From the UHGV virus genome UHGV-0019275: DNA of 24,941 nucleotides; one strand, given 5' to 3'. The stretch is from a virus. Positions 13,818 to 22,536 of the stretch are shown piece by piece (positions within the stretch are counted from its first letter, which is position 1; each line of letters starts with the position of its first letter). The position numbers and the translations under genes were made by a program. Under the pieces are notes generated by a model. The model worked only from the letters and a program-made list of their open reading frames with translations. It had not been told where the DNA came from and did no database searches.

Positions 13818-14543
13818 TCAATCGTGAGTGGATATTTGCGAAACAAACTCTTTAACTCCATCTCGTTCAAGTATTTTACTGTCATGGATATACTTTACGA
13901 TATCCCACTCGTAGTATGTACAAGCCATTGCAACTAAAGATATTATTTTTATGTCAGTTAAGTTAACTAATGTTTCATAATAATCTTCCCGTTCAACCCC
14001 GCAATTATCTATCAACTTCACAATCAAATAAAAGCGACGCACCACTGAAAAAATGCAATCATTAGCATCCACTTCACTTAACCACTTTGTTATTACCTCT
14101 TTTTTTACCTTGGCTTTAACTAAAATTACAATATTATCTTCAAGATAAGTTACGGCTGCACCACTTGTAAATTCTTCGACCACCCCGTCAGTTTGTCCAT
14201 CAATATCACCAACTTGAACACAAAACCTTTCAAAGTTAGAATCCTGACATTCAACCAAATGGAAAAATCTCACTTCAAATTTTTTATACTCTTCTAAAGA
14301 TTCTTGCCTTTTTACTTCATCGATCAGGCTGGAATTAGCCTCCCTTTGAAGTTTTATTGAATTTATAAGGAGGTAAATTGTAATAAATGAAAGTATAGGG
14401 TTGACGACACCACCCAAATAATCACCAAACTGCGCCCAAACATCAGTCTTGCTGGATAAATGTCCGTTTACTCCGAAGTTGAAGTAATACAAGGCGCACA
14501 CAGCTACAATCACGCCAGCCGAAGACAGCAACACCTTTCTCAT
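13818..14543 (-). CDS. Cargo protein B: 241-aa protein with two predicted N-terminal TM helices, function unknown (candidate membrane effector)
   Basis: ATG at 14543 overlaps the stop of the upstream gene (ATGA); hydrophobic segments VIVAVCALYYFNF and VVNPILSFITIYLLINSI; AT-rich codon usage unlike the phage backbone; no family recognised. Confidence 0.7.
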   Translation of the reverse strand: MRKVLLSSAGVIVAVCALYYFNFGVNGHLSSKTDVWAQFGDYLGGVVNPILSFITIYLLINSIKLQREANSSLIDEVKRQESLEEYKKFEVRFFHLVECQDSNFERFCVQVGDIDGQTDGVVEEFTSGAAVTYLEDNIVILVKAKVKKEVITKWLSEVDANDCIFSVVRRFYLIVKLIDNCGVEREDYYETLVNLTDIKIISLVAMACTYYEWDIVKYIHDSKILERDGVKEFVSQISTHD

Positions 14544-15358
14544 ACAGTTTCAACCATACGGATTAGATATTTCACCACATCACCACTTTTTACTACAACT
14601 TTGCTAACAGTAAGTTTTAGATATGTGTAGTTATCTTGCCTGCCATTATTATTGTGTAAATTTAATGAGACCAATCTTTTTTGAGCGGCGGGTATAGCCT
14701 TTAAAGGCATGTAAAAACCAAAGGCTACTGTATCATCTTCACCTTCGATAACTAACCTACCATTTCCAGTTCTCGCATTAAATCGAGTAATAACTGCGTT
14801 AATATTAACTTGACCGGGCTTTATTTTTGATTGTGTCAAGTTTGTAGCAGTCATTGTGTCTAACTTTGCTATTCTTTGTTTTCCAGCAGGTTTTTTATAG
14901 TTAAGTTCAACATCAAAGTTTTTTTGAAGATTTATCCTATGCATCCTTACCAAAGGTTGTCTGATACGATCAATAAGTTCATCTTCAATTTCCTCAAGCT
15001 CCTCAATAATTCCTGCAGCTTTTGGAGATAGCTCCTTAGTTTCCAGATATAGAGATTCAGAAATAAAATACCCCATGACTTCCGAGAACACAGAACGGGT
15101 CATTTTTTTTAATTCGGCAGCTAATTCCGGCTCATTAACAATCAAGTCGAAGTTTTGACCATAAGAACTTTTAAAGCTTTGTTTGAGAACCGCTCGCGCA
15201 GGGTTAACATGAGTGCGGCGCTTAATAATTTTTTTTCTGAGTATTGCCTCTGCTAGTATGCATGTCACCTCAGCCGTTCCAGAGAGGGTATCAAGGCCAT
15301 ACTCCATATCAACTTCTTGATCACCACTTTTGATGACAACGTCATAGCTAACTTTCAT
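14540..15358 (-). CDS. Cargo protein A: 272-aa soluble protein, function unknown
   Basis: ORF track starts at GTG 15364, but ATG 15358 has a good SD (AAGGA, 7-nt spacing); no nucleotide-binding or nuclease motif recognised by eye; AT-rich. Confidence 0.7.
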   Translation of the reverse strand: MKVSYDVVIKSGDQEVDMEYGLDTLSGTAEVTCILAEAILRKKIIKRRTHVNPARAVLKQSFKSSYGQNFDLIVNEPELAAELKKMTRSVFSEVMGYFISESLYLETKELSPKAAGIIEELEEIEDELIDRIRQPLVRMHRINLQKNFDVELNYKKPAGKQRIAKLDTMTATNLTQSKIKPGQVNINAVITRFNARTGNGRLVIEGEDDTVAFGFYMPLKAIPAAQKRLVSLNLHNNNGRQDNYTYLKLTVSKVVVKSGDVVKYLIRMVETV

Positions 15359-15466
15359 CGGCACATCCTTGATTTAGTAACCTTTGGTTATTATTTTTCA
15401 TCTTCTACTCATTGACACCGATTTTTTACACCAAAAATATCAAATTGCAAGTGTGTGCTGCGCGCA

Positions 15467-15485
15467 ATGCTTTCCCCGCCACGCC
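15467..15485 (-). other. cos cohesive-end site (186/P2 type)
   Basis: Minus-strand 19-mer GGCGTGGCGGGGAAAGCAT differs at 2 positions from the P2 cohesive end GGCGAGGCGGGGAAAGCAC (from memory) and matches my recollection of the 186 cohesive end; placed between portal side and replication side as expected. Confidence 0.55.
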
Positions 15486-15644
15486 TGCCCGCTTTACGGG
15501 GCGGTTTTAATGCAGTTGCATGAACACTCGGGATCCGCGCCAGCTCTGGCGGCGCACGGTCAGAACGGGCAACCCCTGCGAATGCAAAAGCATGCACCTG
15601 TTGCATGCACGGCTAAAAACGGGGAAATCGCGGAAAAATGGCAT

Positions 15645-15672
15645 AAAAAACCGGCATTCACGGTGCCGGTTT
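15645..15672 (-). terminator. Hairpin with flanking A/T runs near cos (possible terminator for leftward transcripts)
   Basis: AAACCGGCA-ttcacgg-TGCCGGTTT with A-run on the + strand upstream (U-run on the minus-strand transcript downstream). Confidence 0.3.
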
Positions 15673-15809
15673 GGGGCTGGTTTTGTCGCGATTACTGGGC
15701 GTGTAATGCGCCAATAACACTATTGAGGCACATGCTGGCAAAAATCAGCAGAAAAATCGTCGTCCACCGATTTTCATAAACGAGAGATAACATATTGATA
15801 TAGATCCTT

Positions 15810-16001
15810 TTATTTGTGCATTCTAATGTGGTTTAACAGGTGTTTGATAACGACCGTAAGCTCATCTTTACTGGCTTGCTCGACCATTTTTTCGGTGTAG
15901 CTTTCCACCTCACGAGAACTCAGGTCGTTATTTGAAGCCATTACGGTCAGCTTTTTTGCCCAATCGGCAAACGGGTCTATCGATGAAAGGGAATTATGCA
16001 T
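15810..16001 (-). CDS. Hypothetical small protein (start uncertain; overlaps the start of the divergent 143-aa ORF)
   Basis: ORF with ATG at 16001 preceded by a GAGG SD; tightly divergent from the + ORF so only one may be real. Confidence 0.2.
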   Translation of the reverse strand: MHNSLSSIDPFADWAKKLTVMASNNDLSSREVESYTEKMVEQASKDELTVVIKHLLNHIRMHK

Positions 16002-16431
16002 GTCCAAAAACCTCGAATTATTTAACCAGCAGACGGCGGAAATTTTTGCGGTGTTATGGGATAACTTCCCGGTGCCGCAGGTCATCACCTACGAAAAATT
16101 TAACGCCGTGCTACCTGATGACTACTTTGACCAACTTAACTCACCGGAAATGAAAGCACTGAATCAGTTGCGTAGTGTGGTTGAGGGTACATTCACTTTT
16201 CTCAGTGAAAACGGCTACATCCAATATGAAACAGACCATCAGACTTATTTTCGGGATGTGCGCCTGACCGAGAAAGCACTCGCCGTGCTCAACAAAAAGC
16301 CCGAGGCACTCGGCGGTAGTGAAACGATGGGCGATAAGATTATCAGTGCGGTGAAAGACGGGGCACCCGGAGTTATTGCAGGTGCGGTGACAAACCTGCT
16401 TTCACTCGGTGTCAATCTGGTAACCAACTAA
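16000..16431 (+). CDS. Hypothetical 143-aa protein with hydrophobic Gly/Ala-rich C-terminal tail
   Basis: ATG at 16000 with AGGGA SD about 9 nt upstream; plausible composition; C-terminus GAPGVIAGAVTNLLSLGVNLV; no family recognised. Confidence 0.4.
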   Translation: MSKNLELFNQQTAEIFAVLWDNFPVPQVITYEKFNAVLPDDYFDQLNSPEMKALNQLRSVVEGTFTFLSENGYIQYETDHQTYFRDVRLTEKALAVLNKKPEALGGSETMGDKIISAVKDGAPGVIAGAVTNLLSLGVNLVTN

Positions 16432-16498
16432 CGCCTCGCGTGGCTCGTTGTTCAACCCCGTCAGCACTGAAAGCAAGTTTCAGCACCGGCGGCGTTTG

Positions 16499-16732
16499 TT
16501 AATGCAGCCAGCTATCGTCCTCCCATACCTGCTGCATGATTTCCATTACTCGTTTTTTATCTTCGTCCAGTTTCAAACCGCTTAGTTCAACGCCATTAGC
16601 GGAGCCCTTGCGAATTCGGATAGCAGTCTTTGGGTAAATAGGTTGAAGATTGCGGTACAGTTCAGCCTCAAGTGCATCCAATGTTGCCTGACTAATTTTT
16701 TGCTCTTTATCCAACGTGATATTGATTCTCAT
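16499..16732 (-). CDS. DinI-like protein (SOS-regulated; corresponds to the DinI-like part of the 186 Tum antirepressor)
   Basis: 77 aa, MRINITLDKEQKISQATLDALEAELYRNL...MEIMQQVWEDDSWLH, resembles the E. coli DinI family (MRIEVTIAK...ALAGEL.RR...EILQETWE..DDWF) from memory. Confidence 0.75.
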   Translation of the reverse strand: MRINITLDKEQKISQATLDALEAELYRNLQPIYPKTAIRIRKGSANGVELSGLKLDEDKKRVMEIMQQVWEDDSWLH

Positions 16733-16735
16733 AAT

Positions 16736-16918
16736 CTAATCAGCCTTATAAAAATTATCATCTTCGGTTTCGTTATTTTCGCTGTTTGCTAGGTCTGCAA
16801 TGAGAGTGAGCGCGAGCTTTAAGTCTGATGGCTTGCAGTTTGCAATCAGAGATACCTCGGCAATAAATTGCACACAAGCCCACTTTTGCTGCGTTCGGCT
16901 GAAATGTTCGCCAACCAT
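16736..16918 (-). CDS. Tum-like antirepressor N-terminal ORF, first gene of the LexA-controlled operon
   Basis: ATG 16918 with strong SD (GGGAGGG); LexA box 20 bp upstream; ends at TAG 16736-16738, in frame with the DinI-like ORF. Confidence 0.6.
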   Translation of the reverse strand: MVGEHFSRTQQKWACVQFIAEVSLIANCKPSDLKLALTLIADLANSENNETEDDNFYKAD

Positions 16919-16937
16919 GAAATCCCTCCCATAGGGT

Positions 16938-16957
16938 TACTGTATGTTTATACAGTA
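16938..16957. promoter_or_regulatory. LexA (SOS) box overlapping the promoter of the tum/dinI-like operon
   Basis: TACTGTATGTTTATACAGTA, a perfect CTGT-N8-ACAG palindrome with AT-rich spacer, between the A stop (17032) and the ORF start (16918). Confidence 0.75.
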
Positions 16958-17031
16958 GCACGTATTGGCAAAAGATGGGAAGAAAAAAAACGAATAGAGC
17001 GATTGCTGTATGTGCATGATATGGATATGAA

Positions 17032-19254
17032 TTACTCATGTATTGGTTTTGATTCTTCAGCCATCGCCGCAACACGATTAAGGATTTTCCGAGCTTTAGC
17101 CTCATGCGATGGTGCTGCGGAAAATATTTCTCCTTTGGCCGTTCCGCGTAGCCATTTACCATCAAAACAACTTTTACCACCGGCCATCAGGTGCAGGGCT
17201 TCGCCCCGGCTGATATTAATGCCGGTTGTCAGATGTATCTCATCGATAGTTTTAGCTATAGCTGCGTTTTGCTCATCCGTTCCGTGGATGAATTTTCGCC
17301 GTGCTGCTGGCTTTTGCTTCCTGAGTCGGTTGGTCAATTCTCGTCTTTCACGCCGACTCAGTGGTTTTGTTAAATCCAGTATCGGTGGATCGCTTTCGCT
17401 TCCCGTACAGTTATTGACAGAACTCCGAGGGACGGCTTTGCCGTCCTGAAGGTCAACGGCCAAATCAACAGCACGCTTCGGAACAATCTTCCACTGAGTG
17501 AGCCGGGTTAAAATCGGGCTTCCTGCACCTATGGAGGAATCGTAGACCCCCTTAATACATACCGTTTCCTCACCGTACTGATTAAGCTCGGTACGCGGTT
17601 CATACAGTGTGCGCACCTGTAAATCATCGCGACGGACAAACGGCCCACCCTGAGCATTAACATAACCAGCCCAGTCACCAGCGTCGGCGGCATCATGGAC
17701 GGCGGCAAACTCAACGCTCAGACCGTGCGCGGTTTCGGTATCAGCGAGGCGACGCAACTCACGGTAAACCGTCACCGGCGCACCACCAATAAACTGAAAC
17801 TGACGGATGTGCCAGCGCGCAGCCCATGCTGAAACGGCGGGGGCTGTCTCTTTCAGCAGCTCACCGCTTTCATCATCGGTTTCACCATCGAGAGCATAAC
17901 CGTCGATATTTTTTGAAATGTATTTAGCAACATAGCCGGTTGCGCTGCCTTTCTCCGGGTCAATGGACTCCGCGTGGAAACGTGCTTTTTGGGATTTATC
18001 GCTTTTCAGTTCGTGGCGGTCTTCTTTCCATGCGTATTTACGGACGATGGAGCGAACATATTCAACATCTTCCGGCAGCATGAACATCAGCATGTGCCAG
18101 TGTGGAGTGCCGTCGTGATGGGGCTCGGCGACACGAATACCGAAAATACGGACATCTTCCCGATGTAGTTTGGCACGGATACGCGCCCAGATACCGGTTA
18201 GATAGTTTTGCGTGTCAGCCGGGCTGGCACCGCTCCATTTGCTGTTACGGTAACCGGCTTTAGTCGTGGCGTGATATTTTGACGGCGCGGTTAGAGTGTA
18301 AAACTCACCGACATAACCGAGCTCATTACAGATGTTTTCAAACCCACGAATGCGGGTCATGAGCTCACAGCGGCGAATCGCAGGGTTAGCAACTGAGCCA
18401 TCATATTTTTCAATTAGGCTGATACGGTTGCCGTCTTCGTCTTCGAGATCCAGACCTTTGAGAAATTCACGAGTGCGGCGCTTTTGTTCACGCCAGTCAG
18501 TCACGCAGTTTTTACTCGCGTAAGTGTTTTTTTTCTTACTGACGTTGCCGACTGCAATTTGCAGGTGTTCGCGCCACGTAGCTGCTACACGGCGCAAACG
18601 ACCGCGCCACCACCCATCGTTAAACATTTTGGCGATAGCCGGTGCGATTTCATCCGCACCGACATATTTTTTTTCAACCCGCTCCCAATGTGGTGGGATA
18701 ACGTTGAATTGGAGGGAAATAAAGCCAGCACGAATATACCAGGTGTACAGCGTTTTAAGCTCGCCGAATCCGTGGTCATTAATGTTGGCAAGTTCACCAC
18801 GAATGAAATTAGCAATATCAGCGGCCAACAGGTCAACATCAGCGCGCGACATGTCCGGGAGACGGTTATATCGGGCGACCATATTAACCATGCGTGACGA
18901 CAGATATTGCATTTGCTGAGTATCAAAATGACTTCCAAAAACAGCGGTTGATACCTTGCTGTTGATACCAGCGCATTCGTATTTTTTTGCGACCAGTTCA
19001 AGACGCGGCAATGCCTTTTTGCAGAAGCTGATTAAAAATGCATTGGCTCGTTGACTACCCTGATTTTGTTCCAGCACCGCAGCAGTGCGATAAACATCTA
19101 ACCGCACGCAGTCGGGCTGGAGAGAAAGCACCTTTTTTGCATGCAGCAAAGCCGCGAACATACGGTCGCGGCGATGCTGTTGCTCATAAGTAAGGTATGG
19201 GCTGGAGATTGCCGACCGTGGGACGTTCCACGGATAAGCGAATTGAACAGCCAA
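17032..19254 (-). CDS. A: Replication initiation endonuclease A (rolling-circle initiator)
   Basis: 740 aa; conserved blocks (YTLTAPSKYH; VAEPHHDGTPHWHMLMF; GYVAKYISKNIDGYALDG) match P2 gpA from memory; initiator codon at 19254 is TTG, 1 nt after the upstream stop (coupled). Confidence 0.95.
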   Translation of the reverse strand: MAVQFAYPWNVPRSAISSPYLTYEQQHRRDRMFAALLHAKKVLSLQPDCVRLDVYRTAAVLEQNQGSQRANAFLISFCKKALPRLELVAKKYECAGINSKVSTAVFGSHFDTQQMQYLSSRMVNMVARYNRLPDMSRADVDLLAADIANFIRGELANINDHGFGELKTLYTWYIRAGFISLQFNVIPPHWERVEKKYVGADEIAPAIAKMFNDGWWRGRLRRVAATWREHLQIAVGNVSKKKNTYASKNCVTDWREQKRRTREFLKGLDLEDEDGNRISLIEKYDGSVANPAIRRCELMTRIRGFENICNELGYVGEFYTLTAPSKYHATTKAGYRNSKWSGASPADTQNYLTGIWARIRAKLHREDVRIFGIRVAEPHHDGTPHWHMLMFMLPEDVEYVRSIVRKYAWKEDRHELKSDKSQKARFHAESIDPEKGSATGYVAKYISKNIDGYALDGETDDESGELLKETAPAVSAWAARWHIRQFQFIGGAPVTVYRELRRLADTETAHGLSVEFAAVHDAADAGDWAGYVNAQGGPFVRRDDLQVRTLYEPRTELNQYGEETVCIKGVYDSSIGAGSPILTRLTQWKIVPKRAVDLAVDLQDGKAVPRSSVNNCTGSESDPPILDLTKPLSRRERRELTNRLRKQKPAARRKFIHGTDEQNAAIAKTIDEIHLTTGINISRGEALHLMAGGKSCFDGKWLRGTAKGEIFSAAPSHEAKARKILNRVAAMAEESKPIHE

Positions 19255-21316: not shown

Positions 21317-22177
21317 ATGAGTTCTGAGCTTGATGTTCAGTGGCGTGTTAGTGCAACGAACGGCGTATTGGAACGCTTAATGTCAGCCTATGGGGTCAAG
21401 ATGCAAAAGGATTTGGCTGACCTGCTAGGTATCGCTAAACACAGCGTTAGCGGCTGGGTTCAGCGTGATGCAATACCTGGCAATGTCATAGTTAGGTGTT
21501 GTCTTGACACGGGAGCTGATATCAATTGGCTTGTAAATGGAGAACTTGCAAATGCAAATCACGAGCGAGCCAGTTGCAAGTTAAAAGGCAAAGAGCTTTA
21601 TGACGAGATTATGACGAATGGTGGTAAAACCGTTTTGCGTAGGATTCTTGATGCGTATGGCTTTACCATGCAAAAGGAGCTCGGTGATTTGCTCGGCATT
21701 TCCTCTGGCACAATTAGCACATGGGTAAGGCGAGATTTTTTCCCTGGTGATGTTGTTGTTACATGCGCTCTTGATACCGATACGTCACTGGAATGGTTAG
21801 CAACAGGCAAGGGGCAAATGCGAGCTAACAGGGAAGATGTCACATCTGGTTTTTCTATTAAAAAATCTCGTCTTGAATCTGGTGAGCTTAAGGATGCAGG
21901 AACGTGGCATCCTGACCCCTCAATGATTCCTTCTAACTCAGGGGAATTGATTTTTGTTGACGGTGTAGCTGCCTCTTGGCTTGTCGACTGTTCTGCTTCG
22001 AATATAAGTAATGGTCGCTGGTTAATTGATATCGACGGCGCTCTTGATGTTTTTGATGTAATTCGCTTGCCCGGTGGAAAAGTCAGGTTGTCAAATAAGT
22101 CTGCTGAGTTTGAATGCAACATTACAGACATTACTCCTGCCGGGGCTGTAGTTTTCACATTGGAAAAACACGTGTAA
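21317..22177 (+). CDS. cI: Immunity repressor, 186 CI-like, with tandemly duplicated N-terminal HTH domain
   Basis: 286 aa; residues about 16-75 and 105-165 are internal repeats (AYG..MQK.L.DLLGI.....S.WV.RD..PG.V.V.C.LDT.....WL..G), each resembling the 186 CI DNA-binding domain; upstream of int on the same strand. Confidence 0.8.
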   Translation: MSSELDVQWRVSATNGVLERLMSAYGVKMQKDLADLLGIAKHSVSGWVQRDAIPGNVIVRCCLDTGADINWLVNGELANANHERASCKLKGKELYDEIMTNGGKTVLRRILDAYGFTMQKELGDLLGISSGTISTWVRRDFFPGDVVVTCALDTDTSLEWLATGKGQMRANREDVTSGFSIKKSRLESGELKDAGTWHPDPSMIPSNSGELIFVDGVAASWLVDCSASNISNGRWLIDIDGALDVFDVIRLPGGKVRLSNKSAEFECNITDITPAGAVVFTLEKHV

Positions 22178-22185
22178 GGGACATT

Positions 22186-22514
22186 ATGAAATGTAAACTC
22201 TTTTTAGCTCTGCTTCTTACCCTTTCTTTTGGAGCCTCAGCCGCTGAAAAAACACAGGATTTAGATGGCGCTAAGTTTGGTGAGGATTGGCCGTTAACTT
22301 TTGAAAAAGCTACGGTGTCTTGTGTCAACGGTAAATATGCCTTTGTGTACGACAAAGCAACAGATGACCAAATGGTTTTGCGATTGATGGAGTAAAGTCT
22401 GGAAAGCTTGAGGGGAGCAATATTGATACTGTTTGGAAAGATAGCCCGGAGTATGCAGGCGTAAAAATTCCTTTGGATCCTGTAATGGATGCTGCAACAG
22501 CACTTTGGGAATAA
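22186..22514 (+). pseudogene. Small secreted protein gene (DUF2511/YebY-like?) interrupted by a frameshift
   Basis: ATG 22186 with AAGGG SD and signal-peptide-like N-terminus MKCKLFLALLLTLSFGASA; frame 1 stops at 22393-22395, but frame 3 continues as PNGFAIDGVKSGKLEGSNIDTVWKDSPEYAGVKIPLDPVMDAATALWE to 22514; a 1-nt indel near 22366-22370 would join them. Confidence 0.5.
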
Positions 22515-22536
22515 TTAGAGTTGCCTCGGTGACATT

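Follow-up and report, generated by a model that had tools for sequence, protein, structure and literature searches.

Whether a tum-type antirepressor gene has been broken by a nonsense mutation, or whether two separate genes natively occupy its place, is the question raised by a locus on the minus strand of a 24,941-nt stretch of viral DNA (UHGV virus genome UHGV-0019275; hereafter the window). There, a LexA box precedes a 60-codon open reading frame (ORF) that ends at a TAG codon, and a 77-aa DinI-like ORF begins one codon later in the same frame (continuous single-frame translation ...FYKAD-stop-IMRINITL...); both ORFs and the stop codon lie exactly where the original prediction had placed them (Table 1). 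Two readings had been left side by side: either the antirepressor was uncoupled by a nonsense mutation, with SOS induction possibly blunted, or the lineage natively encodes two proteins. We consider it very probable that the region is an intact tumA-tumB SOS-induction operon of a PSP3-like, 186-family (Eganvirus-type) P2-like prophage in an E. coli chromosome. It would do the work of 186 Tum, but with the two genes of PSP3 in place of one; this arrangement is already known and ordinary, being recorded in GenBank annotation and treated in published work.

Table 1 Features of the tum locus and of associated phage genes in the window.
Feature	Position	Strand	Basis or remark
p95-like SOS promoter, -35 hexamer TTCCCA	16976..16981	(-)	Aligned with the annotated 186 p95 -35 (TTCACA)
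LexA operator (predicted SOS box), TACTGTATAAACATACAGTA	16957..16938	(-)	Consensus match 18/20
Shine-Dalgarno sequence of tumA, GGGAGGG	16930..16924	(-)	Read from the sequence; 5 nt ahead of the ATG at 16918
tumA, 60-aa antirepressor homologue (PSP3 TumA)	16918..16736	(-)	Codons 16918..16739, TAG 16738..16736
ATT codon between the tumA TAG and the tumB ATG	16735..16733	(-)	ORF list
tumB, 77-aa DinI-family protein	16732..16499	(-)	ATG at 16732; ORF list and Pfam DinI
Stem-loop just past the tumB stop, between convergent genes	16496..16454	(-)	RNA fold
Replication gene A (P2/186 gpA-like)	17032..19254	(-)	ORF list; adjoins the tum locus on its upstream side
cI immunity repressor	21317..22177	(+)	Pfam Phage_CI_repr (two copies) and Phage_CI_C

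The locus has close counterparts both in phage PSP3 and in bacterial chromosomes. A 501-nt query spanning it (16480..16980) was 96.8% identical at the DNA level to PSP3 (AY135486), and PSP3-like phages covered 72-77% of the window at 89-97% identity. The same 501-nt tum region was 100% identical in several E. coli chromosomes, and the full region was present in 37 complete E. coli genomes, where it is annotated as two intact coding sequences (PGAP labels 'hypothetical protein' and 'DinI family protein') and not as a pseudogene. Upstream, a 74-nt spacer separates the LexA box from the end of gene A (17032), whose ORF is described as 'replication endonuclease' or 'similar to P2 A' in matching records; the order of gene A, p95 and tum is common to the window and 186, and with gene A directly upstream the locus is fixed at the position of the 186 'SOS operon'. 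Downstream of tumB, the stem-loop (-29.5 kcal/mol, z = -2.1, from RNA folding of the 81-nt stretch 16425..16505) has no U-tract, and a terminator scan of 16300..17150 made no call; the structure may, as a tentative suggestion, act as a terminator or as a stabiliser of the RNA end.

The predicted operator, TACTGTATAAACATACAGTA, matches the LexA consensus TACTGTATATATATACAGTA at 18 of the 20 positions, is the sole such site in the window and arose by chance in none of 100 shuffles. It had originally been described as a perfect LexA box, which on in silico scoring holds for the CTGT/ACAG half-sites and their flanks but not for the two central bases, which deviate. Its position is that of the annotated LexA site of 186 (GenBank U32222), for which the record gives a p95 promoter with a -35 hexamer TTCACA, an 18-nt spacer and a -10 hexamer TACTGT, the LexA site beginning at the -10. 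In the window, the first six bases of the box (TACTGT, 16957..16952) are the counterpart of the p95 -10, the 18-nt spacer hardly differs from that in 186, and the two promoters correspond almost base for base (cTTCCCAtcttttgccaatacgtgcTACTGT against cTTCACAccttttgccaatacgtgcTACTGT). The hexamers themselves (TTCCCA and TACTGT) are poor, and a generic sigma-70 scan of 16300..17150 called nothing, so the promoter was placed by homology to the annotated 186 p95. From this alignment, we predict that the operon promoter is LexA-repressed, with the putative SOS box overlapping its -10. Relatives share this layout: a CTG-N10-CAG motif lies 36-43 nt upstream of tumA in 24 of the 24 that could be scored, and the tumA Shine-Dalgarno sequence is also conserved in relatives; the strong ribosome-binding site that had been noted ahead of the 60-codon ORF is GGGAGGG, 5 nt from the ATG.

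The interior of the operator shows a further peculiarity. Its outer parts are identical in the window (16941..16954) and in 186 (L002, 3548..3561), and taking the exact reverse complement of the central 8 bp in 186, ATGTTTAT, gives the window centre, ATAAACAT as read on the gene strand (the PSP3 centre is ATAAATAT). This flipped-looking core is probably mere drift in a degenerate, AT-rich centre.

TumA, the product of the 60-codon ORF, is 98% identical to PSP3 TumA and matches phrog_1993 (E = 1e-31); its exact sequence occurs on at least 1,000 contigs, under the name 'hypothetical protein' in RefSeq and 'TumA' in UniRef. Its likeness to the N-terminus of 186 Tum is weak and becomes visible only in a joined alignment or in profile comparison: TumA alone gave no tblastn match to 186 at E<=0.01, the TumA family and the 186 Tum N-terminal family were matched by hhalign with a probability of 85.6% (E = 5.6e-6) across the conserved core V..IA.......C......AL.LIA..A, and the N-terminal halves of the two proteins share ~34% identity over 32 columns. 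When the two window ORFs were joined, the 139-aa product aligned with 186 Tum at 37% identity over 134 columns (E = 4e-32) with both halves covered, bearing out the expectation that a joined protein of about 139 aa would resemble the ~146-aa 186 Tum and its DinI-like C-terminus. For TumA itself, there was no Pfam family, no PADLOC match and no PDB relative by profile search, and an AlphaFold2 model gave a two-helix hairpin at moderate confidence (pLDDT 68).

The DinI-like region of 186 Tum (146 aa) lies in its second half (Lemire et al. 2011, PMC3121763), and Tum is described as binding CI and preventing operator binding (Shearwin 1998, as relayed in PMC3121763). PSP3 TumA is stated to carry antirepressor activity by way of a personal communication (PMC3121763), and it is on this communication, relayed in two papers, that the assignment rests; whole-word searches for TumA and TumB found no paper in the literature searched. 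By homology, TumA appears to be a Tum-type SOS antirepressor homologue of the 186/PSP3 kind, and the identification of the region as a LexA-controlled, Tum-type antirepressor locus stands, given the 18/20 box and the homology to PSP3 TumA.

TumB, which is 99% identical to PSP3 TumB and likewise present as an exact sequence on at least 1,000 contigs, matched the Pfam DinI family (PF06183) over profile positions 2-63 of 63 (E = 7.4e-24; 84.3 bits, with a cut-off of 24.2), E. coli DinI (PDB 1GHH; E = 2.6e-9) and phrog_189, 'RecA filament binding protein DinI' (E = 3e-30). These matches place TumB in the DinI family and suggest that it may bind RecA filaments and modulate the coprotease activity of RecA. 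The tumB start lies 3 nt past the tumA stop and is preceded by just a distant AAGG, 11 nt upstream, with no well-spaced Shine-Dalgarno sequence; given this proximity and the distant AAGG, translation of tumB is probably coupled to that of tumA. Both genes show low ratios of non-synonymous to synonymous change (dN/dS 0.03-0.26 for tumA and 0.01-0.11 for tumB).

A separately made DinI-like product is also indicated for 186. Its GenBank record lists the 146-aa tum together with three in-frame truncated products, the shortest of which, Tum95.5, begins at a GTG with AAGGAGG ahead of it and reads (V)KVNITLDKDQ.... This start coincides with the start residue of tumB (MRINITLDKEQ... in the window), from which it follows that 186 also makes the DinI-like part separately, and according to the record the truncated Tum95.5 'modulates SOS induction'.

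How general the boundary between the two genes is was assessed among homologues and at species-level loci. A search with TumA returned 208 homologues, and the figures on lengths and ends refer to the 120 that were listed. The genera represented were Escherichia, Salmonella, Klebsiella, Citrobacter, Cronobacter, Enterobacter, Yokenella, Kluyvera, Pluralibacter, Atlantibacter, Kosakonia and Buttiauxella. Among the matches listed, 108 of the 120 were 59-63 aa long, and the longer ones were N-terminal over-calls translated through the LexA box (...LLYKYTV...). All 120 ended at the same position (full-length ones with ...FY.A[DE]), and none of these 120 of the 208 ran on into a DinI domain. The junction was then surveyed in 28 species-representative genomes, of which 24 could be scored for operator and stop codon; the tumA stop was TAG in 15 loci, TAA in 6 and TGA in 3, so that the stop is conserved in its position but not in its codon. 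A DinI gene lay downstream of tumA in 8 of the 28 species-level loci, and unrelated genes or none in the other 20. Where a DinI gene was present, the spacer was variously 3 nt and in frame (the PSP3 clade and L015), 2 nt and out of frame (L023) or 13 nt and out of frame (L027).

The split and fused forms coexist among phages. As the first 70 residues of 186 Tum, used as a protein query, retrieved mostly short or partial proteins rather than full-length 146-aa Tum, the two forms were counted instead from a tblastn census, which gave ~28 phage records with a fused 186-type tum and ~10 with the PSP3-type pair; stand-alone N-terminal modules of 63-72 aa, named 186-type 'Tum protein', were common. 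According to Lemire et al. 2011 (PMC3121763), a stop codon splits tum in PSP3 and in Fels-2, and it is the upstream gene that encodes the antirepressor, so the possibility that relatives of 186 are encoded as two ORFs with the same stop proved correct for PSP3 and Fels-2 but not for 186 itself, which is fused. The PSP3 record (AY135486 / NC_005340) annotates tumA at 29134..29316, with the note 'similar to 5' end 186 tum; UV induction of prophage', and tumB at 29320..29553, with the note 'similar to dinI and 3' end of 186 tum'.

Against this background, a fused 186-type tum of ~139 codons that was recently hit by an amber mutation, leaving a truncated antirepressor, an orphan DinI domain and blunted SOS induction, has next to no likelihood. 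It would account for two ORFs lying in frame and one codon apart, and for a joined product that aligns end to end with 186 Tum. It is at odds, however, with a stop position kept in all 120 listed homologues across many genera and spelled by three different codons, with the 20 of 28 species-level loci in which TumA stands alone without a DinI gene, with the out-of-frame spacers in L023, L027 and Fels-2, with strong purifying selection on both genes, and with the annotation of PSP3 tumA for UV induction. In addition, the title of Bunny et al. 2002 attributes the lethal phenotype of a lexA-null mutation in Salmonella to the Fels-2 prophage, which carries the split form, and as far as that title goes, a split tum locus can drive induction. 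The conserved stop position, the three stop codons, the frequency of lone TumA, the purifying selection and the split in PSP3 and Fels-2 refute the nonsense-mutation reading, with its possibly blunted SOS induction. The single-ORF structure of 186 is absent from the window, where the TAG at 16738..16736 separates the modules; this stop codon is a native gene boundary, the two-gene state is native, as the earlier alternative had it (the pair being annotated in PSP3, described in print and conserved at its boundary), and it is the fusion in 186 that is exceptional.

Two further readings accept the boundary and differ on what the genes do. One holds that the TAG-ATT-ATG junction is itself functional, allowing low-level amber readthrough, more of it in supE hosts, and hence a minor 139-aa TumA-TumB fusion that would mimic 186 Tum and act as a third regulatory species in the induction switch. 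The in-frame arrangement of TAG, 3 nt and ATG throughout the PSP3 clade (the window, PSP3 and L003-L006) speaks for it, as does the production of both fused and short forms by 186; yet PSP3-clade TumA sequences are 95-100% identical to that of the window, which makes conservation of their junction uninformative, and the spacers elsewhere (in frame after a TAA in L015, 2 nt in L023, 13 nt in L027 and 10 nt in Fels-2) indicate that a fusion is no requirement of the family. No readthrough-promoting element was seen, and we judge this reading to be highly unlikely. A comparably small chance attaches to the view that the 60-aa ORF is not an antirepressor but a leader or accessory peptide, induction being brought about by the DinI-like protein or by a gene elsewhere. 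That TumA has no Pfam family or solved relative, is a 'hypothetical protein' in RefSeq and owes its functional assignment in PSP3 to unpublished work would all fit such a role, but its strongly conserved core (WACVQFIAEVSLIANCKPSDLKLALTLIADLA) is under purifying selection, it always lies behind a LexA box even where no DinI gene follows, it shares homology with the half of a characterised antirepressor (186 Tum) that is not DinI-like, and many 63-72-aa 186-type Tum N-terminal proteins stand alone. An intact two-gene operon of antirepressor homologue and DinI-family protein remains the reading that we favour.

Mosaic operons were also found, in L004, in E. coli sequences H71-H83 and in phage vB_EcoM-613R3 (H10/H41/H121). 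In these, a tumA 98-100% identical to that of the window is combined with a 186-like DinI allele that shares 47% identity with TumB of the window, and the switch point falls in the first ~40 nt of tumB, a conserved stretch (MRINITLDKEQK); from the location of this joint near the tumB start, the tumA and tumB halves behave as separate modules. Separately, TumA loci 84-90% identical to enterobacterial TumA were recovered under the names 'Bacillota bacterium MAG' (L008, a 1-kb contig) and 'Chryseobacterium sp. 18061' (L011). To judge from that identity, the likeliest explanation is contamination by, or mis-binning of, enterobacterial contigs, not a genuine presence in these hosts.

Elsewhere in the window, the immunity repressor CI is 286 aa long, the same as PSP3 CI, and PGAP annotates it at full length, as 'phage repressor protein CI', in an E. 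coli genome with a tum locus identical to that of the window; an Apl/Cox-like gene and a CII gene lie opposite cI. A Pfam search of CI (21317..22177) gave no Peptidase_S24 match, and a repressor without this domain fits induction by an antirepressor. CI is thus predicted, from its domains, to be of the 186/PSP3 type and not RecA-cleavable, and is the presumed target of TumA. Its N-terminal part comprises tandem copies of the 186-type helix-turn-helix (HTH) region (aa ~14-83 and ~103-176; 50% identical, E = 4e-25) ahead of Phage_CI_C. The CI of 186 has a single HTH in 192 aa. Nilsson et al. 2011 speak solely of a 'longer C-terminal domain' in PSP3 CI.

Four hypothetical genes, on both strands, fill the interval between tumB and the portal gene (13818..16431): genes of 274 aa and 241 aa that overlap by 4 nt (-), a 143-aa ORF (+) and a 92-aa ORF (-; 64 aa according to PGAP). 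Their matches in PHROGs were to families of unknown function alone, and PADLOC gave none bar a weak ZorB/MotB-like match of the 241-aa product (E = 0.002). P2-like phages carry variable cargo at this position, old, tin and orf97 among it, and on that basis the 274-aa and 241-aa genes might together form a defence or exclusion module not yet characterised. Between cI and int lies a DUF2511-domain gene (22178..22536 (+), equivalent to L031 1457..1795), PSP3 gp28, which is possibly a lysogenic-conversion (moron) gene expressed from the prophage.

We propose the following course of events. In an undamaged lysogen, LexA would occupy the operator overlapping the -10 of the p95-like promoter and the operon would be off. 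Upon DNA damage, RecA would become active, LexA would cleave itself and the promoter would fire, yielding one mRNA for two proteins, with tumB probably translated by termination-reinitiation 3 nt past the tumA stop. TumA would then bind the non-cleavable 186-type CI, a contact suggested by analogy with 186 Tum, and lift its hold on the lytic promoter, so that the prophage is induced, while TumB, acting on RecA filaments, may tune the SOS signal and with it the timing or extent of induction.

These results support a view of Tum as modular, in which a small LexA-controlled antirepressor often stands alone, a DinI partner is optional and 186 has the two fused. In practical terms, the RefSeq 'hypothetical protein' could be renamed TumA, which would aid in predicting SOS-inducible P2-like prophages.

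The nearest known system is that of PSP3, in which the LexA box, 60-codon tumA, TAG, 3-nt spacer and 77-codon tumB, downstream of gene A, are as in the window and the 286-aa CI likewise has two HTH copies. The two differ by point changes alone, one of them in the centre of the LexA box (AAACAT versus AAATAT), and PSP3 is recorded as a Salmonella phage, whereas the window represents a prophage in an E. coli chromosome. With 186, the genomic position, the promoter and LexA operator, and the antirepressor and DinI-like modules are homologous to those of the window, and a CI type without a self-cleavage domain is common to both; in 186, however, the modules are fused in a 146-aa ORF, with a ~20-residue linker that carries an internal Shine-Dalgarno sequence and no stop, and orf97 follows downstream where the window has unrelated hypothetical genes. 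Fels-2 (STM2728 and STM2726.1) also has a small ORF behind a LexA-box-like CTGT...ACAG and a separate DinI gene, downstream of gpA, but its upstream ORF is highly divergent, has 62 codons and ends in TGA, and its DinI ORF is out of frame after a 10-nt spacer with its own Shine-Dalgarno sequence, GAGGTGA. More distantly, the dinI-gfoA/gftA loci of Gifsy-1/2/3 are LexA-repressed operons that pair a small antirepressor with a DinI homologue and act on an uncleaved repressor, but with dinI first, with other antirepressor and repressor families and in lambdoid rather than P2-like phages (Lemire et al. 2011, PMC3121763). Finally, TumB aligns with E. coli DinI (1GHH) over the full DinI length, including the C-terminal acidic helix (...ILQETWE.. 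/ ..IMQQVWED..), and differs from it in being phage-encoded and co-expressed with an antirepressor.
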